IMG/VR virus record: IMGVR_UViG_2713896904_000008
Location: 1 to 23,195 of that record
Direction: 5' to 3' (one strand)
DNA: 23,195 nucleotides
Origin: a virus
Taxonomy: Duplodnaviria > Heunggongvirae > Uroviricota > Caudoviricetes
Positions 4,280-19,758 of this stretch are shown in pieces (within the stretch, counting starts at the first letter, position 1; each line of letters opens with the position of its first letter). The notes under the pieces are model-generated. The model made no database searches and was not told the origin of the DNA. It was given only the letters and a program-made list of their open reading frames with translations. A program made the translations under genes and the position numbers.

Positions 4280-5113
4280 ATGAATACTGTTACTACTATG
4301 AATACTGCTGTTAAAACTGCTTCCGTGTCTCTGGTTGTTGATAACACCAAACCGCTGACCATGTCTTCTCGTCAGATCGCTGAATTTACCGGAAAAGAAC
4401 ACCACAAAGTTAAAGTTGATATAACTAAGATGTTGAATGCTCTAGGTTATGAAGATCACGCGAAGTTTCGCGTCATCTATTTTGACCAATACGGACGCGA
4501 ACAAAACGAATATCAACTAGACGAAGAAATGACTCTGACTCTTGTCACTGGTTACGATGTTAAGCGTCGAATGGTTGTTATTCAGGAATGGAAACGACTG
4601 AAAGAAGAAAATGAAAAACTGCGTTCTCAGCAAGTCAACCCATACGCAAACATGACTAAGCTCGATTGGATTCGTGAGGCAATGGAATTGGAAGCCGCAA
4701 ACGAACAACTGATTCAAGAAAAGAAACAACTGGTTGAATTGCATGTTCGTAAAGCTATCGACACACACAGTCTTAGCCGCTTATTAGGCGAAAAACGAGG
4801 CTCTACGAAGGTACAAATTATTCTGAAAGGTTTATGTGCTGCTGGTGTTCTTGAGCGTCGTCTGGATGCTTCTGGTAAGCCTAAAGGCTATGATCTGCTT
4901 CCTCCTGGCTATATGTTCGCTCGTATGTCGGCACACGGTCAGATCGAGTTCACTGCTGATGCTATTCCGCATCTCGTAAAACTCGGATTGCTTGAAGAAG
5001 AAAAGGCCGCAACTTTGAAATTGCCACAGCCGAATAACTCACGAGCAATCGTCAATAATACTGCTTTGCTGATTCGTCAGAATGCTGGATCACTGGAACA
5101 CTTCGGACTGTGA
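4280..5113 (+). CDS. Rha-family phage regulatory protein / antirepressor-like (277 aa)
   Basis: N-terminal segment LTMSSRQIAEFTGKEHHKVKVDITKML resembles the Phage_pRha domain; C-terminal region resembles antirepressor (Ant/KilAC-like) domains; assignment by motif recall only. Confidence 0.65.
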   Translation: MNTVTTMNTAVKTASVSLVVDNTKPLTMSSRQIAEFTGKEHHKVKVDITKMLNALGYEDHAKFRVIYFDQYGREQNEYQLDEEMTLTLVTGYDVKRRMVVIQEWKRLKEENEKLRSQQVNPYANMTKLDWIREAMELEAANEQLIQEKKQLVELHVRKAIDTHSLSRLLGEKRGSTKVQIILKGLCAAGVLERRLDASGKPKGYDLLPPGYMFARMSAHGQIEFTADAIPHLVKLGLLEEEKAATLKLPQPNNSRAIVNNTALLIRQNAGSLEHFGL

Positions 5114-5121
5114 TAATTTTT

Positions 5122-5146
5122 GCCCCTGAATTTCAGGGGCTTTTTG
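5122..5146 (+). terminator. Rho-independent terminator (gcccctg-aattt-caggggc + TTTTT)
   Basis: Perfect stem and T-run immediately after the Rha-like gene stop. Confidence 0.7.
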
Positions 5147-5187
5147 TATCTGGAGTTTTTCGCCGAAAACCTGCAATACAGAATTTC

Positions 5188-5384
5188 GAAAGAATCAATA
5201 GGTTAGAGATGAGCGCAGTTTTGCGCCGATTGATTCAAGTTTGAATTTCTCGAAAGAATCAACCACTTAGATAGATACGCTGAACTTTAAGCACATCCCC
5301 TCAGTTTTGAGGGCATCTATAGATCAGTCCAAATCTGGACTCATCGGAAGAATCAATGACTTAGAGATGTGCTCAGTTTTGAGC
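5188..5384. repeat. Three copies of a ~40-bp unit (G)GAAAGAATCAA-N4-TTAGAGATG-hairpin, each hairpin with a conserved GTTT loop and covarying stem
   Basis: Hairpins gcgca-gttt-tgcgc (5213-5226), ccctca-gttt-tgaggg (5298-5313), gctca-gttt-tgagc (5371-5384); stems differ but stay complementary. Confidence 0.6.
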
Positions 5385-5390
5385 GGATAT

Positions 5391-10411: not shown

Positions 10412-12415
10412 ATGCTTAAATTTCGCCGCGATCTTAACGGTTACGGTGGAGTTATTAACGAAGGGCATAACGATCAATACGAATTTGAAATTGCTTTCTC
10501 AAGTACACAGCCTTATCAGCGCCAATTTTGGGATGAGCAAAATCAAGAAATGGTGGTATTAGATGAAATTCTGGTACATACACCGGAAGCGGTTGATCTG
10601 TCTCGTCTGAATAATAACGCTCCGTTGCTGTTCAATCATAATTTCGATAATCATTTAGGTGTAGTCTGCGACGCTCGAATCGATGCGGATAACGTAGGCC
10701 GTGCTCTGGTTAAATTCTCTAAGCATGGCACTTTGGCTAATGATGTTCGTAATAAAGTCATTGAAGGTACGATGGAAAAAATTTCTGTCGGCTATGACAT
10801 TAAAGAATATCACATCGATTACGCTAAAGGACAATTGATTGTTACTAAGTGGGCACCCTTTGAAATTTCATTTGTGACAGTTCCTGCTGACGATTCGGTC
10901 GGTTTAAATCGCTCTCTAAATACTATCACAGTTAATTTGGAGGCTAAACGCGATATGACTAAAGAACAAATCGAACAAGTTAAAGACGAAGAAAAAGAAG
11001 TCGCTCAGGTTGAAGAAACTCCGGTAGAAGAAAATAAAGAACCGGAAGTAGAAGAAACTCAAGAGCGCCAAGTTGAAGAGAATAAAGAAGATGAAAATCT
11101 CGAAGACGGAAAAGACGCTGAACATCCTGAAAGTGTTGATGATGATAGTTCAACTGTTCGGGAAGCAGAAGAAATAAAAGAAGAACGTGAAGCTGCTCCG
11201 GTTGAAGAAGAAAAAATCGAGGAAGTGGCTGAACGTTCCGAAGAAGACGAATTAGAAATTCGCGAAATTGCACGCGAACTAAATATTGATGACGAAGAAT
11301 TGAAACGCGCATTGGCAAATAAAGAAATGACGCCGGAAGCATTCCGCACTAAGGCACTAAATAACATTACCAATGCTCAACGTAATAACGAACAAATTAA
11401 GGACTCTAAAATGGAAAAAACTTTTGACCTGAACAACGTAATTCGCTCTCTGGTAGATGGTGAAGCTCTGGGTGCTAACGAAGCCGAGTTTTCTGCAATG
11501 GCTGCTACTGCAACTATGCAGCGTGGTCGTGCTGCTCGTGGTGGCTCTGTATTCGTTCCGGCTGCTGCTATGCGTGCTGCTGCTGCTGGTAACACCAAAG
11601 CCGATCTGACTGCTATCACCGACGAAAAACTGATGACTGAATCCTACATCGAAATGCTGATGCCGGAATCTGTTCTGGGTCGTCTGGGTGTGACTGTTTA
11701 CAGTGGCTTGAATGCTCCGACCGCTATTCCAAAAATGACTAAATCCAGCGTTGATGCTTTCGGCTTCGTTGATGAAAACGGTGCTGCGCCAGAAAGCAAA
11801 GCTGAATTTGCGAACGTGAAACTGTCTCCTAAGACTTTCGCTGGTGGCAACCCGATCAGCCGTCAGAGCATTAAAACCGTTCCGGGTATCGCTACCCTGA
11901 TCACTGATCACATCAACCAGGCCGTTCGCATCAAACTGGAACAACTGATTCTGTCTGACAAAGCTAACGATCGTGGTCCGGATGGTCTGGTTAAACAACT
12001 GGTAGACGCTAGCCGTGTTACTAAGAAAGCCGCTTTCAGCTACAAAGACTTCCTGAAAGAAATTGCAGCACTGACTGATGCTGGCGTTCCTGCTCAGGCG
12101 ATCAAGTTTGCAATGAGCGGTGCAACTGCTGCTGAACTGGAATCTACCCTGAAAGATAACGGCGTTTCCGGTTATATCATCGAAAACGGCAAACTGGCTG
12201 GTTACGATGTAGTTACTTCTGGTGTTATTCCGGCAGACCACATCGTTCTGGGTGACTTCTCCGGTATCACTATCGGTGAGTGGGGCGGTCTGGAACTGGA
12301 TATGGACGACACTACCTACCGTGCACAGTCCGCTATCGTTCCGCGTATCTGGGTAGATCTGGATTATGTTGTTACTCAGCCGGAAGCTCTGAAAGTTCTT
12401 CACATCTCCGAATGA
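10412..12415 (+). CDS. Prohead protease - acidic scaffold/delta region - major capsid protein fusion ORF (667 aa)
   Basis: N-terminal ~170 aa with prohead-protease-like LLFNHNFDNHLG ... ISVGY motifs; Glu/Lys-rich acidic middle (res ~190-330); Ala/Gly-rich capsid-like C-terminal domain with extreme codon bias; stop TGA. Confidence 0.8.
   Translation: MLKFRRDLNGYGGVINEGHNDQYEFEIAFSSTQPYQRQFWDEQNQEMVVLDEILVHTPEAVDLSRLNNNAPLLFNHNFDNHLGVVCDARIDADNVGRALVKFSKHGTLANDVRNKVIEGTMEKISVGYDIKEYHIDYAKGQLIVTKWAPFEISFVTVPADDSVGLNRSLNTITVNLEAKRDMTKEQIEQVKDEEKEVAQVEETPVEENKEPEVEETQERQVEENKEDENLEDGKDAEHPESVDDDSSTVREAEEIKEEREAAPVEEEKIEEVAERSEEDELEIREIARELNIDDEELKRALANKEMTPEAFRTKALNNITNAQRNNEQIKDSKMEKTFDLNNVIRSLVDGEALGANEAEFSAMAATATMQRGRAARGGSVFVPAAAMRAAAAGNTKADLTAITDEKLMTESYIEMLMPESVLGRLGVTVYSGLNAPTAIPKMTKSSVDAFGFVDENGAAPESKAEFANVKLSPKTFAGGNPISRQSIKTVPGIATLITDHINQAVRIKLEQLILSDKANDRGPDGLVKQLVDASRVTKKAAFSYKDFLKEIAALTDAGVPAQAIKFAMSGATAAELESTLKDNGVSGYIIENGKLAGYDVVTSGVIPADHIVLGDFSGITIGEWGGLELDMDDTTYRAQSAIVPRIWVDLDYVVTQPEALKVLHISE
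11411..12415 (+). CDS. Major capsid protein translated from an in-frame internal start (334 aa), nested in the fusion ORF
   Basis: AAGGA at 11399-11403, 7 nt before in-frame ATG 11411; codon usage switches to highly-expressed type (ctg, cgt, ggt, gct, ccg) from about this point. Confidence 0.5.
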   Translation: MEKTFDLNNVIRSLVDGEALGANEAEFSAMAATATMQRGRAARGGSVFVPAAAMRAAAAGNTKADLTAITDEKLMTESYIEMLMPESVLGRLGVTVYSGLNAPTAIPKMTKSSVDAFGFVDENGAAPESKAEFANVKLSPKTFAGGNPISRQSIKTVPGIATLITDHINQAVRIKLEQLILSDKANDRGPDGLVKQLVDASRVTKKAAFSYKDFLKEIAALTDAGVPAQAIKFAMSGATAAELESTLKDNGVSGYIIENGKLAGYDVVTSGVIPADHIVLGDFSGITIGEWGGLELDMDDTTYRAQSAIVPRIWVDLDYVVTQPEALKVLHISE

Positions 12416-12553
12416 ACTAACGTAGAACCTTCTGAACCTTCCCCCGATTTGGGGGAAGAAAATCTGATTCCATCTCAGGAAGAAGAATCCCAGACGGTTA
12501 CGGCGAAAGCCACAGCTAAAAAGGCGGGTCGTCCGCCGAAAGCAAAAGAATAA
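12416..12553 (+). other. In-frame open extension after the capsid TGA stop (45 codons: TNVEPSEPSPDLGEENLIPSQEEESQTVTAKATAKKAGRPPKAKE, then TAA TAA); candidate readthrough segment
   Basis: Hand translation in the capsid frame shows no stop until 12551-12553; perfect 8-bp hairpin cttccccc-gattt-gggggaag at 12438-12458. Confidence 0.45.
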
Positions 12554-12558
12554 TAATT

Positions 12559-12586
12559 AGCCCTGCCTAACGGTGGGGCTTTTTTG
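12559..12586 (+). terminator. Rho-independent terminator (agccctgcc-taac-ggtggggct + TTTTT)
   Basis: Stem with G-U pairs and T-run; same terminator family as 18458 and 19731. Confidence 0.75.
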
Positions 12587-12616: not shown

Positions 12617-12907
12617 ATGTTCAAATTATCAGAATCACAATTAAATCGAATGTTTAAGAGTGCTCCTGTTTTTGTCGTGGAAGGTGGTAAATCAATTCGT
12701 GCTTACCATGAAATTACTACTACCGACGAACAAGGGGTATGGACAGAATCAGAATTCTTATTCTGTCGTGAGGGAGATTTAAAGCAAGGTGATATTGTCA
12801 TTGTAGAAAATCAGCGTTTCAAAGTTCAATACATTAAGCGCAATGGTGACAATACCAGTGATTGCTTTATCACTTTAGCAGGGGGTGCTCATGCTCGCTA
12901 CCGTTAA
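12617..12907 (+). CDS. Putative head-completion / head-tail adaptor protein (96 aa)
   Basis: GGGGGTAA RBS; small ORF directly after capsid gene; synteny-based. Confidence 0.5.
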   Translation: MFKLSESQLNRMFKSAPVFVVEGGKSIRAYHEITTTDEQGVWTESEFLFCREGDLKQGDIVIVENQRFKVQYIKRNGDNTSDCFITLAGGAHARYR

Positions 12908-13313
12908 TAATATGCCACGTCTTAAGATTAAACGTGCTTTACAGGATATTATCGAACAAGATCTAGGTCTGGCTTTAAACGTAGAACAAACTCAGCAAGG
13001 CTTTAGTGATGACGTGGTTTGTTGGATCACCGGAATGAATGAGACTTACAATAGGGTCCGTGGCGGTAATGCAATGCAAGCTGAATGCGTTATCGAAATG
13101 CAATTGTATTCTCAGATTCATGAAACCAAAATTCATGAGGGTATTTGCCAGATAATCCAGATTCAGCCAGATAACCCACGTTTTAAAGATTTGGGCTTCG
13201 CTATTTCAGATATCACTCCAGTAGCCTCTAATACCGATTATGACGACGATTCTAGTGATGGGGGTATCGTTGGGACACTTAGCCTTAAATTTTCTTATCT
13301 AGCGCGTTTTTAA
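12891..13313 (+). CDS. Putative head-tail joining / tail completion protein (141 aa from ATG 12891; ORF track starts at GTG 12885)
   Basis: AGGGGG 5 nt before ATG 12891; 17-nt overlap with upstream gene suggests translational coupling; synteny-based. Confidence 0.5.
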   Translation: MLATVNNMPRLKIKRALQDIIEQDLGLALNVEQTQQGFSDDVVCWITGMNETYNRVRGGNAMQAECVIEMQLYSQIHETKIHEGICQIIQIQPDNPRFKDLGFAISDITPVASNTDYDDDSSDGGIVGTLSLKFSYLARF

Positions 13314-13322
13314 GGGGTAATA

Positions 13323-14156
13323 ATGAATATTACGCATGATAACTTAGATATTTTTACGGGATCACATGTTGAAGTGTCGATCTCTAACCAGCTAGACAAT
13401 CAGGTCGACTTTTTCGATCCTAGCTTTAGTTCTATTGAGAACATCGCAGCATTCCCTACTCTAACCGAATCCACAGAGATAGAAACTCTGGAAGAGTATG
13501 ATCATGATGCTACTGGTAAGCTGGCTGGCTATCGCAAACTTGAACCGACTACGCTCACAGTAAACCGTGTTCTGGATGACGAACATCAAGCAATGTTGAT
13601 GAAAGCGGTAGAGGATAAAACACCTTTACGCTTCCGTATGTTCTATGTTGTGAACTCTGGCTATAGTGCTGCTAACACTGGTTACTATGTCATCTATGAT
13701 GCTTACGTCACATCACACAAAACCCGTGGTAGTGATAACAAAGCTGTAACACTGGAATTCAAACTTGAACCAGATGGCGGGATTCTTGCAAGGGGTATAG
13801 CGACCGAGGGAAAACTCATCCGACAAGGGGATTTTGGCGTAGGCTCAGGCGTTAGCCCATTCACCGGACCTATTGATAGTGAATCTCTGACAGGAAACCG
13901 CTTTGTAACCTACAAAGGAACGGCCAGCACTAACCCTTATGGTGCTGATACATCGTTAATTCATCTTCAAGCTAATGAGCATGGCGCATGGCAATTAACG
14001 TGTAATACTTCCGGTGCTCCACGTTTGCGGGTACGAAATATTCAGGACAACGGAAAATCGGAATGGATTAAAGTCTATACAACAAACGAGAAGCCTACGC
14101 CAGCCGAAATTGGCGCAGTGGCTAAGACGGACCGGATCGATTTCGGTGAGTATTAA
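13323..14156 (+). CDS. Tail-tube-fold paralog of the major tail protein with a C-terminal tail-fibre-like domain (277 aa)
   Basis: N-terminal ~150 aa align by eye with ORF 17865..18341 (DIFTG; FP-T; TLTVN; KA-ED-T; YYV; TG-; EF-); C-terminus IKVYTTNEKPTPAEIGA matches tail-fibre segment YKMYHEGDKPTPGEIGA. Confidence 0.65.
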   Translation: MNITHDNLDIFTGSHVEVSISNQLDNQVDFFDPSFSSIENIAAFPTLTESTEIETLEEYDHDATGKLAGYRKLEPTTLTVNRVLDDEHQAMLMKAVEDKTPLRFRMFYVVNSGYSAANTGYYVIYDAYVTSHKTRGSDNKAVTLEFKLEPDGGILARGIATEGKLIRQGDFGVGSGVSPFTGPIDSESLTGNRFVTYKGTASTNPYGADTSLIHLQANEHGAWQLTCNTSGAPRLRVRNIQDNGKSEWIKVYTTNEKPTPAEIGAVAKTDRIDFGEY

Positions 14157-14233: not shown

Positions 14234-17200
14234 ATGCAGTCGATCCAATTTAAACGCACACAGACGGCTGGTAAAAAGCCAACGCCGGAACAATTACAGG
14301 TCGGTGAAATCGCTATTCAGATGGCAGACCATGTAATTTATACCAAAGATAAAAATAACGCAGTAGTTCAAGTAAGTGTTTCTCCTGAAAGTCATAATGC
14401 TTTAAACACAAAAGTAGACAATAACAAGAAAACTACTGATGCGACTATCGCGGCAAATAAAACCGAAGCTGCTAACGCTCTGGCTACCGCTAAATCTGAA
14501 CTGAATAACACGATTAACACGAAAGATACAGCGACCAATAAGCGCATTGATGCTACTAACACCACTGTTAGTAACTTAACCCAGACAGTTACGGCAAATA
14601 AAACCGACGCTGACACCAAGATCAATAACCTTACGGGGACAGTTGCATCTAACAAATCAGCTATTGAAACTACAGTAGCTAATAACAAACGAGATGCGGA
14701 CAATAAAATCGCAGCTTTAACCACGACGGTTAATGACAATAACACCGCGATTAACAACAAAGTTAATACCACTAACACCAACGTTAGCAACTTAACTAAA
14801 ACTGTTACTGCAAATAAAACCGATGCAGATAACAAAATTTCTAGCTTAACTAGCACGGTTGCAGCTAACAAAACAGCGATTGAAAAGGTCGTTTCCGACA
14901 ACAAGAAAGATGCTGATACTAAAATCAGTAACCTTACAGGGACGGTGAATAGCAACCATACCGCTATTAACGCAAAGGTTGACAAAAACAAAACTGATAC
15001 TGATTCAGCGATCGCAGCCGCTAACCGTCGAATTGATTCTATTGAAGGTAGTAACGATGCTCTTTACATCAAGAAGAATACCAACACTTATCATCACGGC
15101 TATTTGTTAACCAAAACAGCTAACTATCTGGAAGACCAGACATCACGAGATCTTAACTACTTTGGTGCTTTCCGAACTAATGGACAAGATGGACTCATGG
15201 ATCTAACTCTTAATGTTCCTCATTCTGCCGGTAAAGCGCACGGTCGCGGATTTACTTTCCGTTATGCGTCTGGTGGATCTCGTGTTGAAACCTATGGTTT
15301 TGATAGAGAAGGACAGAAGAACTTTAGCTATAAGATGTATCACGAAGGTGATAAGCCGACTCCTGGCGAAATCGGTGCATACACTAAAGCAGAAGTTGAC
15401 AAGATGTTTGTTAAAAACGTCACTATGTCTGTTCCTAATTCTAGCGAAAACGTATCTGCATATTTCAAATTGGCAACCGCAACAATTCCACAAAACGGGC
15501 GTAGTGTGTTTTTCCGTATTCATGGTGGTAATGGTTACAACGTTACGGCATATGACCAAGTTGATGTAGTAGAAATTCTTCTCCGTAGTGGTAACGATAG
15601 ACCTAAAGGACTTAACGTAATTGCATACCGTAGAAATACAAACAAAGATTTTGAGGTATTTGCTGTCAATACTTCCGGTGATAACTATGATATCTACGTG
15701 AAATATCAGCGTTATACCGATAACGTTATTGTCGAATATGGGAAATCTGTTTATGTAAGTTTGACGGTTTATGATACGCCGGAAGCCACGTTAATTAAAC
15801 CTTCCGTTGGTGTTATCGGTGGTCGCAACGTAACTCTTTTTAACACAGAAAATAAACGTGGTGTGTTGAGTTTTGACGACAATACACAAAACAGCTATGA
15901 CATTGTTCATCTAAGCAATGATAGAGGTACTGGACGGAAATATATTCGTAAATTCCGTAGCAACTATAACGAAATGATCTGGCATGAGACTGTTCAAGGT
16001 AATACATATCGATTGGCAACCGGAACGACTGATGCATCGGAAGTTTTTAGAATTACTAGTCGCACCATGTTTACTGGTAAAGGTGTATTTGATGCCGGAC
16101 AAAACGTTCTTAGATTAGAGCGTCCTAGCAACCAATCAAACTATATTGAATGGCAAGACCGCCGAAATGGTGCTGATGCTCGTCAAGGTTGGATCGGTTT
16201 TGGTGGTGCTGAAACAAATAACTTTCAATGGTATAGCGATCAAGGAAAAAACTCATTCCTGTTGGATGCTAATGGTCAATGCTCTATTATTACTGGTGCA
16301 ACAAAAATTGTATATACCAACGGTGAATATTGCTCTGGCAACTCTAACGCATATCGTATGGCATTTGGTAACTATGGCGCATTCTGGCGTAATGACGGCA
16401 CTAAAGTTTATCTGTTGTCTACTGCTGAAAACGATAAGTTGGGCGGCTGGAATACTTATCGACCATTCATTTATGATTTAACTTCCGGTAACGTTCAATT
16501 AGGCGGTGATGGTAACGAAGATGCATTAACGTTAGAACGTGCTTCTCGTGCCGCTCGCTTTAGTAATGACGTTTACATTAAGAAAGGGCATTTGACTTTC
16601 GACGCTGGACGATTAGGATCTCGTGATTTCTTTAAAATCAACCATTGGGGTGATAGCAATAACGCCCGTGATAACATTTTGCAGTTTGAAGACAGTCAGG
16701 GCGCACATTTTACCACTGAACGTGCTATGGGTACTGGTAACATAACAGCACGTTTTAAAGGCTTTGTTCGTGTTGAGTCTGGTGAGATTGCATTTGATGC
16801 TAATCGGGGGTCGCAGTCTCAATTCACCTTACACACATGGGGTAACGAGCAACGCAAACAGGTTTTTGAATGTAAGGATGCTACAAGTTATCACTGGTAT
16901 ACTGAACGTACTCAGGGTGGCACTGGACCTATTCTGTTCGCTATGGCGGGTAGTCTAAACGTTGCTAGCAATATCACAACAACTGGTGCTGATATTACGT
17001 TTAAACGCGCTGGCAATAAGCACATCTGGTTTAGAGATCCAGACGGTTTAGAGTTAGGCTTGATGTACTGCGATGATGCTGGTGCTATTCGCTTCCGTGG
17101 TCAGAAACAAGCCCAGACGTGGAAACTTGCGGATAAGATGATTCATCTTGAATCTGGTAGCGTCGGCGGGTCTGATAAAGGTTTGATTCGTGGTAACGTT

Positions 17201-17809
17201 TCTGGTGGTAGTTGGGCTAGCTGGCGTGACCGTGCTTCCGGTTTACAAGTTGATTGTCCTCAATCAACCGATTCCGCTCATAACATCTGGAAAGCGACTC
17301 ATTGGGGAAAATATCATATTGCGGCAATGGGTGTGCATGTTCCTGGCGGCACTATAGGTAATGCTATGGCACGTCTAAACGTAAATGACGCCAACTTTGA
17401 CTTTAACGCTGCGGGTGATTTTAGCGCAGGTCGTAACGGTAGCTTTAACGATGTTTATATTCGTTCTGACCGTCGTCTGAAAGTTAATCTGGAAGAATTA
17501 AAAGATGATGCTTTAGAGAAAGTAAACTCCCTGAAAGTCTACTCATACGATAAAGTTAAGTCTCTTAAAGATCGTAGTGTGATTAAACGCGAAGTCGGTA
17601 TTATTGCTCAGGATCTTGAAGAAGTATTGCCGGAAGCAGTAGGTATTCAATCCACCGAAGATCCAGAAAATCCAGAAGCAATTAAGACTATTTCTAACTC
17701 CGCTGTTAATGCCTTGATTATTAAAGCTATTCAGGAAATGGACGCCAAATATAAAGCCCAGATCGAAGCATTACAGAAAGAAATTGCCGAACTCAAAGCA
17801 ACTAAATAA
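14234..17809 (+). CDS. Long tail fibre protein with C-terminal intramolecular chaperone / self-cleaving domain (1191 aa)
   Basis: N-terminal KRTQTAGKKPTPEQLQVGEIAI anchor-like motif; 72-aa tandem repeats; C-terminus SDRRLK ... GIIAQDLEEVLPEAV resembles the chaperone domain of phage T5 L-shaped fibre and endosialidases (Ser-Lys dyad motif). Confidence 0.85.
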   Translation: MQSIQFKRTQTAGKKPTPEQLQVGEIAIQMADHVIYTKDKNNAVVQVSVSPESHNALNTKVDNNKKTTDATIAANKTEAANALATAKSELNNTINTKDTATNKRIDATNTTVSNLTQTVTANKTDADTKINNLTGTVASNKSAIETTVANNKRDADNKIAALTTTVNDNNTAINNKVNTTNTNVSNLTKTVTANKTDADNKISSLTSTVAANKTAIEKVVSDNKKDADTKISNLTGTVNSNHTAINAKVDKNKTDTDSAIAAANRRIDSIEGSNDALYIKKNTNTYHHGYLLTKTANYLEDQTSRDLNYFGAFRTNGQDGLMDLTLNVPHSAGKAHGRGFTFRYASGGSRVETYGFDREGQKNFSYKMYHEGDKPTPGEIGAYTKAEVDKMFVKNVTMSVPNSSENVSAYFKLATATIPQNGRSVFFRIHGGNGYNVTAYDQVDVVEILLRSGNDRPKGLNVIAYRRNTNKDFEVFAVNTSGDNYDIYVKYQRYTDNVIVEYGKSVYVSLTVYDTPEATLIKPSVGVIGGRNVTLFNTENKRGVLSFDDNTQNSYDIVHLSNDRGTGRKYIRKFRSNYNEMIWHETVQGNTYRLATGTTDASEVFRITSRTMFTGKGVFDAGQNVLRLERPSNQSNYIEWQDRRNGADARQGWIGFGGAETNNFQWYSDQGKNSFLLDANGQCSIITGATKIVYTNGEYCSGNSNAYRMAFGNYGAFWRNDGTKVYLLSTAENDKLGGWNTYRPFIYDLTSGNVQLGGDGNEDALTLERASRAARFSNDVYIKKGHLTFDAGRLGSRDFFKINHWGDSNNARDNILQFEDSQGAHFTTERAMGTGNITARFKGFVRVESGEIAFDANRGSQSQFTLHTWGNEQRKQVFECKDATSYHWYTERTQGGTGPILFAMAGSLNVASNITTTGADITFKRAGNKHIWFRDPDGLELGLMYCDDAGAIRFRGQKQAQTWKLADKMIHLESGSVGGSDKGLIRGNVSGGSWASWRDRASGLQVDCPQSTDSAHNIWKATHWGKYHIAAMGVHVPGGTIGNAMARLNVNDANFDFNAAGDFSAGRNGSFNDVYIRSDRRLKVNLEELKDDALEKVNSLKVYSYDKVKSLKDRSVIKREVGIIAQDLEEVLPEAVGIQSTEDPENPEAIKTISNSAVNALIIKAIQEMDAKYKAQIEALQKEIAELKATK
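14558..14990. repeat. Two tandem ~216-bp repeats (72 aa each, with ~14-aa sub-periodicity TVTANKTDADxKIxxLTxTV) in the fibre shaft
   Basis: NTTVSNLTQTVTANKTDADTKI at residue 109 and NTNVSNLTKTVTANKTDADNKI at residue 181. Confidence 0.7.
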
Positions 17810-17864: not shown

Positions 17865-18341
17865 ATGTCTCAGCAATTTAAAGATATTTTTACTGGTGGT
17901 CTGGTAAGTCTGTTCTATCACGCCGATACCACTAACACCAATCTTGCACATGAAAGCTATGAAGAAATTAAAGAGTGTGCTGGTTTTCCTGAAACTGGTA
18001 TCGAGCGCGGTACTGTAGAAGTTAAATCCTTCTCTTCTCAGTATAACCGTAAACTGGTAGGGAAGCTGAACGTTCCTGATCTGACTCTGACCGTTAACTA
18101 CATCCCAGGCGATGCGGTACATGAAAAACTGATCAAAGCTGCCGAAGACGGTACTCGTATTCAGATTAAAGTAGAATATTACGTTGACGCAGCAAAACAG
18201 ACTGGTATTCGCACCGCTTTCAACGGCTTCATTTCTAAAGTTGCTATGAACGGTGGCGATGAAGAAGTGGTAACTAAAGAGTTTACCTTTGCAGTGGACG
18301 GCAAACCGCTGAAACAGGAAATCTTCAATACTGCCTCTTGA
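17865..18341 (+). CDS. Major tail (tube) protein, 158 aa
   Basis: Position immediately upstream of chaperone/tape-measure genes; strong codon bias; GGGGTAA RBS; stop TGA. Confidence 0.75.
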   Translation: MSQQFKDIFTGGLVSLFYHADTTNTNLAHESYEEIKECAGFPETGIERGTVEVKSFSSQYNRKLVGKLNVPDLTLTVNYIPGDAVHEKLIKAAEDGTRIQIKVEYYVDAAKQTGIRTAFNGFISKVAMNGGDEEVVTKEFTFAVDGKPLKQEIFNTAS

Positions 18342-18452
18342 ACTTTCGAAGAACAACCCCAGCCAATTCAAGATGAACCTACGGTGATTCCAGAATTAGA
18401 GGTTGTTACGGCGAAAGCCACAGCTAAACGAAGCCGCAAGGCTAAAGATTAA
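18342..18452 (+). other. In-frame open extension after the major tail TGA stop (36 codons: TFEEQPQPIQDEPTVIPELEVVTAKATAKRSRKAKD, then TAA); candidate readthrough segment
   Basis: Hand translation; shares the 24-nt block gttacggcgaaagccacagctaaa (peptide VTAKATAK) with the capsid extension. Confidence 0.45.
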
Positions 18453-18457
18453 TTATA

Positions 18458-18486
18458 AGCCCTGCCTTAATGGTGGGGCTTTTTTA
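18458..18486 (+). terminator. Rho-independent terminator (agccctgcc-ttaat-ggtggggct + TTTTT)
   Basis: Same stem sequence as the terminator at 12559. Confidence 0.75.
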
Positions 18487-18500
18487 TTGGAGTAATAAAA

Positions 18501-19007
18501 ATGGCAAATGTCGTTAATAAGCCCGGCTGGGTCGGATCATCGGCTGTTTCTGTAACTGGCAAGAGATGGATGCGTGAGGCTATGCAAGCGTTAAAAGTTG
18601 GTGTTCCTGGTAATATGAGCGCGATGTGTGGTCGTGGTATGGATACGGTTGTAGCTACTGCTGCATGGTCTACTTCATTGGGTAATAACTGGGGTGTAAC
18701 TGCTTCAAACTATCCAGTAACTGACATGCGCGGTAAAGGATCTATGGAGAACCCCGAAAACGTGGGCGTAGGGCGTCTGATTGGCGTTATCGTTGGTCAA
18801 TTCAATGGCGGTACTCCTACTATGGCTGTATATCTCCAGAACGGTAGAGCGGGGAATATAACCGTTAATTTGGGTGGTGCTGCTGTCACTGTTCCTTATA
18901 ACAGTATGCAAAGTGGTTTTCATTACTACTGGTTAAGCAATCCTCCGGCTGCTTTCCTCAATAACATTAAGAAGACTGGCACTAAGCAGACTTTGAAAAT
19001 CTCATAA
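18501..19007 (+). CDS. Hypothetical Gly-rich protein (168 aa); moron-like insertion between major tail gene and tail chaperone
   Basis: Own RBS (GGAG) directly after a terminator; codon usage (aga, ata, tta, gga, ggg, agt) differs from the flanking highly biased structural genes. Confidence 0.55.
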   Translation: MANVVNKPGWVGSSAVSVTGKRWMREAMQALKVGVPGNMSAMCGRGMDTVVATAAWSTSLGNNWGVTASNYPVTDMRGKGSMENPENVGVGRLIGVIVGQFNGGTPTMAVYLQNGRAGNITVNLGGAAVTVPYNSMQSGFHYYWLSNPPAAFLNNIKKTGTKQTLKIS

Positions 19008-19040: not shown

Positions 19041-19349
19041 ATGAATATTAACGAAATGTTAGCCGCTTTAACTCCTGCTCGTAAATCTATTGAAATCAAC
19101 GGTTTTAAATTTTATGCCCGTCCGATGACCGTAGTAGAATTTAACGAGCACATCACCGCAGTAGATAAGAATGGTCGTGATGAACTGACTATTCTCAATT
19201 GTGTACAGGATGAAGACGGCAATCAGATTTTTGAATCAATCGAACAAGTCAACGCTCTTTATACTACCGCTAAACAGAAATTGATTGGTTTGGTTGCTAT
19301 GGCTTCCATCATGCCGGAACCGTCAGAAGTTGAAGAATCGGTAAAGTAA
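19041..19349 (+). CDS. Tail assembly chaperone (G-like), 102 aa
   Basis: Position immediately upstream of tape measure gene; followed by an overlapping -1 frame ORF. Confidence 0.6.
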   Translation: MNINEMLAALTPARKSIEINGFKFYARPMTVVEFNEHITAVDKNGRDELTILNCVQDEDGNQIFESIEQVNALYTTAKQKLIGLVAMASIMPEPSEVEESVK

Positions 19350-19723
19350 ACCCCTTCTTGAAGTTCTATTATCGGCAGATTATGCGTAAAGGGCTTAGTA
19401 AAGATGAAATGCTCACTATGCCGATCACTTTATTCTATAGCCTATACATTTTCGACACGTTCTTAGAACCGCAATCACCTGTATTTCACGATGATCAGAT
19501 GGCGATGCTTCAATATACCATGTATATGACGTCGCCTAACATGACTCGTGATTTTGCTAAAAAGATTAAACCTAGTCAATTCAAATCAATTAGCGACGAA
19601 AAAGTATTCCTTACTAAGAAAGATATTGAGGAAAGGGAACGTAAGAAGCGGGAAGAAAATAAAGCTGCAATGCTTTCTCTGTTCGATCCTGCATTACTCG
19701 ATACTCTCAAGAAGGGTAAATAA
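19334..19723 (+). CDS. Tail assembly chaperone extension (T-like) in the -1 frame; probable G-T frameshift product
   Basis: -1 frame open from 19334, overlapping the last 5 codons of the G ORF; no SD before TTG 19358; candidate slip at A-AAG-UAA (19343-19349). Confidence 0.45.
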   Translation, partial: RIGKVNPFLKFYYRQIMRKGLSKDEMLTMPITLFYSLYIFDTFLEPQSPVFHDDQMAMLQYTMYMTSPNMTRDFAKKIKPSQFKSISDEKVFLTKKDIEERERKKREENKAAMLSLFDPALLDTLKKGK

Positions 19724-19730
19724 TATTGCC

Positions 19731-19758
19731 GCCCTGCCGTTATTGGCGGGGCTTTTTT
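19731..19758 (+). terminator. Rho-independent terminator (gccctgcc-gttatt-ggcggggc + TTTTTT)
   Basis: Third member of the gccctgcc / ggggc terminator family. Confidence 0.75.

Follow-up and report, generated by a model that had tools for sequence, protein, structure and literature searches.

The major tail-tube gene and the major capsid gene of IMG/VR virus record IMGVR_UViG_2713896904_000008 (Caudoviricetes) both end in a TGA codon followed by A, and behind this stop the reading frame stays open for 36 and 45 codons, respectively. We analysed positions 1 to 23,195 of this record, and this whole stretch of 23,195 nt is called the window. It is part of an uncharacterised siphovirus-type prophage of Escherichia coli of about 37 kb, in which capsid and tail tube are the two most abundant virion genes. 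Including its stop, the tail-tube gene occupies positions 17865-18341, with the genes for the tail assembly chaperones and the tape measure protein downstream. The capsid gene including its stop extends from 10412 to 12415, with TGA at 12413-12415. The following features were assigned at the two loci.

17865..18338, plus strand: coding sequence of the major tail tube protein, 158 amino acids (Pfam Phage_TTP_11, 1.1e-6, and Phage_TTP_12; PHROG 158 'major tail protein', 2e-21)
18339..18344, plus strand: putative leaky stop TGA (18339-18341) followed by ACT (18342-18344), which places A at position +4
18342..18410, plus strand: acidic linker of the tail extension, rich in Pro, Glu and Gln, TFEEQPQPIQDEPTVIPELEVVT, net charge -6
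18405..18428, plus strand: tail copy of a 24-nt block (VTAKATAK), in frame
18411..18449, plus strand: basic end of the tail extension, AKATAKRSRKAKD, net charge +5
18450..18452, plus strand: TAA closing the tail extension, 4 nt ahead of the terminator stem
18457..18487, plus strand: intrinsic terminator AAGCCCTGCC..GGTGGGGCTT followed by a T run (hairpin 18457-18481), lying within the duplicated cassette
10412..12412, plus strand: prohead protease-scaffold-major capsid fusion protein, 667 amino acids (Pfam Peptidase_S78 and Phage_capsid; PHROG 617, 5e-92)
12413..12418, plus strand: capsid TGA followed by ACT (TGA-ACT or TGA-AAT in relatives)
12416..12550, plus strand: capsid extension of 45 codons, TNVEPSEPSPDLGEENLIPSQEEESQTVTAKATAKKAGRPPKAKE
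12438..12458, plus strand: 8-bp hairpin CTTCCCCCGATTTGGGGGAAG within the long capsid extension
12497..12520, plus strand: capsid copy of the 24-nt block
12551..12586, plus strand: TAATAA and capsid terminator (hairpin 12559-12580)

The tail extension (18342-18449) consists of 36 open in-frame codons, ACT and 35 more, and reads TFEEQPQPIQDEPTVIPELEVVTAKATAKRSRKAKD. Coordinates and sequence agree exactly with an earlier note on this DNA, which had described TGA-ACT and a 36-codon in-frame extension behind the major tail gene. Its description of Pro/Glu-rich linkers with a short basic peptide at the end also holds, since the tail linker (net charge -6) and the acidic, Pro-rich capsid linker (net charge -8) are each followed by a basic end with a net charge of +5. 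The same applies to the 24-nt block GTTACGGCGAAAGCCACAGCTAAA, said to be identical and in frame in both extensions: exactly two copies are present in the window (12497-12520 and 18405-18428), both in frame and offset from the first extension codon by 81 nt in the capsid and 63 nt in the tail. No further copy and no antisense match of the block was found in the window, and 0 of 100 shuffles gave a match, even with three mismatches allowed.

The choice of stop codon sets these two genes apart. All other structural genes in the window end in TAA, often as TAATAA, and only capsid and tail tube end in TGA-A. In a complete related prophage (L025), 33 of the 38 annotated genes end in TAA and five in TGA; TGA also terminates other genes normally there, and TGA-A with a long open frame behind it is found at the capsid and tail-tube genes only. 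Relatives with a tail tube of 57-60% identity lack the extension, their tube gene ends in TAA and the terminator follows directly, while contigs with such an extension-less tube still keep the TGA cassette behind the capsid. Thus, the presence of an extension goes along with TGA-A and its absence with TAA. In bacteria, UAA is the preferred stop of highly expressed genes. UGA with A at position +4 has been reported to be prone to misreading by the tryptophan transfer RNA (tRNA-Trp) in E. coli (PMC5289835). Hence, the TGA-A at capsid and tube is the reverse of the usual pattern.

Conservation and origin of the extensions

The comparison of tail copies covered 23 contigs from IMG/VR and L025, L241 and L242, which are complete E. 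coli genomes. In all of these tail copies TGA-ACT is followed by 36, 39 or 41 open codons, with the acidic linker varying in length. The layout of the capsid cassette was just as constant: in each copy examined, TGA-ACT or TGA-AAT precedes 28, 33, 42, 43, 44 or 45 open codons. All of the approximately 60 prophage copies examined keep TGA-A and an open frame 0. In the distinct variants frame 0 never contains a stop, while frames +1 and +2 contain one to six stops each, and the distances from TGA to the final stop differ by whole codons only. Capsid bodies with no more than 39-42% identity (L009, L015, L016 and L091) are also followed by the cassette. In these genomes with divergent capsids, similarity starts at the stop: the corresponding hits (H83-H88) begin at query position 261 or 273, with TGA at 264.

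The codon usage of the extensions is that of genes. In frame 0, the extensions reach log-likelihoods per codon of -3.92 (tail) and -3.85 (capsid), compared to -3.85 ± 0.13 for real genes of the phage in frame, -4.7 to -4.8 for off-frame readings and -4.53 for non-coding DNA. IMG/VR was scanned with an 18-nt core of the block. Inside this phage family, all hits follow a capsid or tube gene and are in frame behind TGA-A; the remaining matches were to unrelated sequences. Occurrences in other frames or in non-coding contexts, which the earlier note had named as speaking against a coding role, were looked for in relatives and not found. Two further IMG/VR matches (L074 and L075, AKATAKKQRK in another context) have unrelated flanks and were discarded as chance matches.

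The basic end of the extensions is kept across differing DNA (KKVGRPPKAK, KKQRKTKE, KKERKTKAK, KRGRKPKE, KRSRKAKD and KRGRKAKN); in the tail copies of relatives it is AKATAKRGRKAKN or AKATAKRSRKAKD. In more distant phages, basic tails are encoded directly. The Edwardsiella-type tube protein ends in …NVIPEAVAAKEK without an intervening stop and can be aligned, at the DNA level, to the VIPE…AK portion of the extension. Tube proteins from Salmonella and Providencia end in …GLRK, …MGRK or …SARK, also directly encoded, and the Hafnia-type capsid protein carries a directly encoded …GVEAKSKA, seven residues past the common end. The retention of the basic end, together with these directly encoded tails, hints that the peptide itself may matter.

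The capsid genes of two distant relatives (L114 2772 and L001 3565, the latter being Escherichia phage DCP80) have no in-frame extension but carry A-AAG two to three codons ahead of the stop, in the contexts GTA AAG CAA GGG TGA and GAA AAG ACA GCA TAA. From A-AAG to the terminator the -1 frame is open in both and leads to basic ends, …EEVSVKSGRKPKTDN and …DAAPVKKSKSASG. These relatives may gain an analogous capsid tail through a -1 frameshift.

In an alignment of capsid and tail ends from the window and a related genome, no similarity is found upstream of the stop. Homology starts at the TGA itself (TGAA[C/A]T..CG.AGAA…) and spans the block, the final stop and the terminator. Judged from this alignment, the capsid and tail extensions are evidently one duplicated cassette, including stop codon and terminator, and have to be counted as one origin. 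Their shared reading frame was then inherited from the duplicated module. Consequently, the argument of the earlier note that two independent in-frame occurrences are hard to explain by a non-coding motif is invalid, because both derive from this cassette. The core of its proposal, a TGA-gated translated extension that parallels the frameshift-derived ones of other phages, is well supported by the relatives. One capsid variant ends in the way that is characteristic of the tail copy, and this speaks for exchange between capsid and tail copies.

The tail terminator is homologous to those at 12559-12580 and 19731-19752. The window thus contains three near-identical intrinsic terminators (GCCCTGCC…GGGGCTTTTTT; 12559-12580, 18457-18481 and 19731-19752), located after the capsid, tail-tube and chaperone genes, and this repeated terminator family punctuates the late operon.

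Predicted readthrough and its alternatives

We consider it probable, at roughly 0.65, that programmed readthrough yields selected, extended forms of the capsid and tail-tube proteins. This interpretation rests on TGA-A and the open frame 0 in all relatives, the whole-codon length differences, the gene-like codons and the co-occurrence of TGA and extension. Two hallmarks of programmed readthrough are present: a leak-prone stop in a favourable context, here UGA with A at +4 in all copies, and a conserved in-frame coding region downstream, although constraint on the latter is weak.

The cassette on capsid and tail tube would comprise UGA-A, 28-45 in-frame codons, UAA and the intrinsic terminator. 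The majority of ribosomes would terminate at UGA via release factor RF2, and wild E. coli strains with a more active RF2 variant may leak less. In a small fraction of events the UGA would be decoded by near-cognate Trp-tRNA, a misreading favoured by A at +4, and the reading ribosomes would go on to UAA. This fraction is presumably a few percent, judging from phage Q-beta and from reporters in E. coli: UGA readthrough amounts to 2-4% in a K-12 reporter (PMC10570021), and the A1 protein of Q-beta is made via approximately 5% UGA readthrough (PMC7026636). The predicted products are minor, longer capsid and tube forms with the same kind of disordered tail, i.e. an acidic Pro/Glu-rich spacer and a Lys/Arg-rich end (…VTAKATAK followed by RSRKAKD or KAGRPPKAKE). 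At rates of a few percent, a handful of extended subunits would be expected per particle.

The tube protein gpV of phage lambda has an accessory immunoglobulin (Ig) domain at its C-terminus. T7 10B and the long forms of PSA and A118 (PMC5009743) are, like this domain, C-terminal additions on homologous folds, namely HK97-fold capsid and lambda-like tube proteins, and in these known cases they face outward. Most likely, therefore, the tag would be displayed outward at low copy on the surfaces of head and tail. Being polycationic, it could act as a 'sticky' tag that attaches to nucleic acid or to anionic polymers on surfaces, and such an adhesive role is the most economical guess.

A folded accessory domain is not apparent, since the extensions are low-complexity segments of 28-45 amino acids without a match to a Pfam or PHROG family, apart from a sub-threshold AT-hook. 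The GRPPKAK end of the capsid extension matches Pfam AT_hook (PF02178) with 14.7 and 14.2 bits, below the cutoff of 17.4. This match is confined to GRPPKAK capsid variants; the tail extension and the KKQRKTKE variants gave none. A PDB sequence search gave no match, and a single-sequence structure model was uninformative, with a predicted local distance difference test (pLDDT) score of 35.

At the RNA level, no stimulatory structure 3' of the stop is common to both contexts. The 8-bp hairpin occurs in the long capsid variant only and has no counterpart in the short capsid and tail extensions; a role as readthrough signal common to both genes is therefore excluded. The folding of the tail extension is not better than that of shuffled sequences (z = -1.6), and no Rfam family matches. 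With no shared RNA structure, no Rfam match and no suppressor tRNA in the window or in L025, context-dependent leakiness of UGA-A is the simplest mechanism. A separate small gene inside the extension was also considered, but no plausible start codon with a ribosome-binding site was seen on reading the sequence.

Several points weigh against readthrough with a selected product. The relatives are closely related, so that the approximately 60 copies are not 60 independent tests, and the capsid and tail copies share ancestry and hence a single origin. Some of the whole-codon insertions and deletions lie in hexanucleotide PEPEP repeats, in which replication slippage preserves the frame regardless. 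In a single sequence the open frame is not rare either: the extensions are poor in T, and therefore frame 0 stays open in 18% (tail) and 22% (capsid) of dinucleotide shuffles. Taken alone, the window is suggestive and proves rather little. Constraint on the amino-acid sequence is weak, with ratios of nonsynonymous to synonymous divergence (pN/pS) of 0.42 for the tail and 0.69 for the capsid extension versus 0.18 and 0.26 for the gene bodies. There is no excess at third codon positions, as the variable sites of the extensions are evenly spread over the three positions. Synonymous divergence in the extensions is 0.16-0.21, about half of the 0.34 in the gene bodies, which points either to nucleotide-level constraint or to recent spread or exchange and homogenisation of the cassette. 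Weak amino-acid constraint and conserved synonymous sites would together leave room for an RNA-level function. The sole fused database protein, P0003 (ENA, 842-bp contig, 198 amino acids), reads tail tube, W and extension, but is probably the result of a genetic code 4 call and was treated as no evidence. It is essentially identical to contig L018, which has TGA at this place, and shows that automated pipelines can hide or fake such extensions.

If translation were irrelevant, the cassette would be a non-coding 3' untranslated region made up of a spacer and the terminator, with the block acting as RNA, either as a small-RNA seed or as a processing or stability site. The low synonymous divergence is in line with this, and so are the near invariance of the block nucleotides in both contexts and the inclusion of the terminator in the duplicated unit. 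The distance from the block to the terminator stem downstream is 29-39 nt. In addition, a hairpin at 12523-12537 (GGCGG-GTCGT-CCGCC), which encodes GRPP of the capsid extension, shows one compensatory pair, GGCGG/CCGCC in the window and GGTGG/CCACC in relatives. An untranslated region would, however, leave unexplained that only frame 0 is free of stops, that the lengths are whole codons, that the codons are gene-like and that TGA and TAA follow the presence and absence of the extension. The missing Rfam match, the inconspicuous folding of the tail extension and the lack of an antisense match of the block in the window do not favour it either. We therefore regard this explanation as unlikely, although an RNA role and readthrough could coexist. 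It is also conceivable, but quite improbable, that readthrough is real and its peptide a by-product. A ribosome at UAA would then occlude the terminator hairpin, the polymerase would continue, and the cassette would set the ratio of capsid or tube to downstream messenger RNA. This would fit the short distance of 4-5 nt between extension stop and terminator stem in each cassette, a frame that has to stay open while the amino-acid sequence is weakly constrained, and the joint transfer of stop, open frame and terminator as one unit. But the TAA of relatives without an extension is equally close to the terminator, which makes this spacing a general feature of these genomes, and neither the acidic-then-basic composition nor the directly encoded basic tails of distant relatives would be accounted for.

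The coding-like codon usage and the relaxed amino-acid constraint could also be expected of functionless, decaying remnants of longer proteins that were cut by nonsense mutations. Such remnants are very hard to reconcile with the same TGA-A being fixed in two genes and in every copy examined, including those behind capsids of about 40% identity, and with the absence of any frame-breaking insertion or deletion or internal stop despite several length changes. Furthermore, the phage otherwise prefers TAA, often in tandem. The least credible explanation, with next to no probability in our estimate, is that TGA is recoded rather than leaky, by selenocysteine or a phage-encoded suppressor tRNA, as the in-frame TGA and the hairpin downstream of the stop in the long capsid extension might indicate. 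This hairpin lies 22 nt past the stop and is missing from the short capsid and the tail extension; a shared element resembling a selenocysteine insertion sequence is thus absent, and Rfam gave no match. A suppressor tRNA was not found in the window, where the only call is a doubtful tRNA-Gln of 91 nt, and L025 contains no tRNA at all.

On the minus strand, the hairpin at 12523-12537 is followed by a T run and resembles a terminator for antisense transcription. The tRNA-Gln(ttg) of 91 nt was called by ARAGORN at 13078-13168 (minus strand), inside the coding region 12885-13313, and is probably a false positive.

Returning to programmed readthrough, we tentatively put forward a wider proposal, which we hold to be possible but doubtful as a whole. 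The unit of UGA-A, acidic disordered linker, basic (partly AT-hook-like) end, UAA and terminator may be a portable recoding cassette that was copied between the capsid and tail-tube genes and kept similar by recombination. It might be the first case found of programmed readthrough in structural genes of a tailed double-stranded DNA (dsDNA) phage and would place the same low-copy polycationic tag on head and tail. The unit may also tune terminator efficiency through ribosome occlusion. In more distant relatives, an equivalent basic tail may be encoded directly or arise from a -1 slip at A-AAG.

Relation to known recoding systems

The predicted system resembles the A1 protein of phage Q-beta. 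There, the gene of the major virion protein ends in a leaky UGA, which a near-cognate tRNA decodes in a few percent of cases, so that an extended minor form is made and incorporated into the particle (PMC7026636); for the prophage, the same course is predicted from sequence. The host, E. coli, is also the same. Q-beta, however, is a small single-stranded RNA phage, and its extension is a folded domain of approximately 195 amino acids needed for infectivity. Here, a tailed dsDNA prophage carries a presumably disordered extension of 28-45 amino acids, and the same cassette is attached to two structural genes.

In the Listeria phages PSA, A118 and A500, both the capsid (Cps) and the tail protein (Tsh) receive recoded C-terminal extensions, with two products per gene (PMC5009743), similar to the arrangement that the cassettes predict here. 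These extensions arise by +1 or -1 frameshifts (e.g. at CCC_UGA) in phages of Gram-positive hosts, whereas those of the prophage are in frame. Furthermore, we found no report of a peptide common to head and tail in the Listeria phages, in contrast to the common peptide predicted here. The 10A/10B pair of T7 and T3 likewise provides a minor capsid species with a recoded, surface-exposed C-terminal segment (PMC5009743). Its mechanism is a -1 frameshift, and T3 and other phages add folded Ig-like domains; neither applies to the prophage, since its extensions continue in frame 0 and stops interrupt frames +1 and +2. Thus, the system would resemble the frameshift family by outcome, not by mechanism.

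Gut phages with stop reassignment also read a stop as sense in late structural genes. Such phages have many in-frame stops scattered through their genes and encode their own suppressor tRNAs. The prophage differs from them in having a single TGA at a normal gene end, no suppressor tRNA, and other genes that end normally in TGA.

So far, longer forms of virion proteins are known to arise by frameshifting in tailed phages and by readthrough in the RNA phage Q-beta. A literature search of incomplete coverage revealed no description of readthrough on capsid or tail genes of tailed phages, and novelty is accordingly provisional. If the proposal is correct, stop-codon readthrough joins the ways in which dsDNA phages decorate their particles, the payload can be a short, disordered, charged tag instead of a folded domain, and a signal of this kind can be transferred from gene to gene as a cassette that includes its terminator. 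The finding would also draw attention to products of a kind that standard annotation overlooks. The cassette would be a natural design for low-copy peptide display on head and tail.

Distribution and neighbouring genes

Among 5426 complete E. coli genomes, the tail cassette is present in 22 and the capsid cassette in 54. A related copy of approximately 37 kb in E. coli 14EC007 interrupts ycdX and adjoins a large serine recombinase. In the NCBI annotation (PGAP) of a related E. coli copy, both genes stop at TGA and the extensions are left as unannotated gaps. No match at the DNA level was found in GenBank phage records or in plasmids, and a scan of species-representative genomes revealed no relative. 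A metagenome scan with the 18-nt core of the block returned 120 stretches, nearly all of them chance matches and one a family member. The nearest isolate is Escherichia phage DCP80 (PQ671644.1), which has 38-44% protein identity and no in-frame extension. Its record is classed as a T4-like Gaprivervirus (141 kb), yet the region contains a lambda-type portal, a protease-capsid fusion and a siphovirus tube related to that of the prophage, so that its assembly or classification looks questionable.

The tail-tube gene is flanked by receptor-binding genes, an unusual position in a siphovirus-type late operon. On one side lies a long tail fibre gene (14234-17809) with T4 gp34-like trimerisation and endosialidase-type chaperone domains, and on the other a T4 gp38-like adhesin gene (18501-19007). 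Directly upstream of the tail fibre, which has 1191 amino acids, a second tube-like protein of 277 amino acids is encoded at 13323-14156. This protein resembles PHROG 158 'major tail protein' in its N-terminal half (5e-9) and, weakly, tail-fibre families in its C-terminal part; it may anchor the fibre.

The tail assembly chaperone pair (PHROG 344) is encoded at 19041-19349 and 19358-19723. Relative to the first, the second open reading frame is shifted by -1, and GTA AAG TAA at 19341-19349, with A-AAG right before the stop, is the likely site of the G/GT frameshift. A -1 slip at this site would lead into a frame that is open into 19358-19723.

Repeats were noticed in three other parts of the window. 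Between 2475 and 2637, in a non-coding stretch, the motif TTGCCCCTGAA(A/T)TT occurs about seven times in 160 bp, with one more copy at 5111-5133, and resembles an iteron or operator array. Downstream of a Rha-like regulator gene (4280-5113), positions 5186-5388 contain three copies of TCGAAAGAATCAA…TTAGA, each followed by the inverted-repeat-like GCGCAGTTTTGCGC or GCTCAGTTTTGAGC. A tandem duplication of 63 nt (947-1072, 94% identical) lies in a minus-strand gene (710-1669, 319 amino acids) and gives rise to a 21-residue repeat in the protein.

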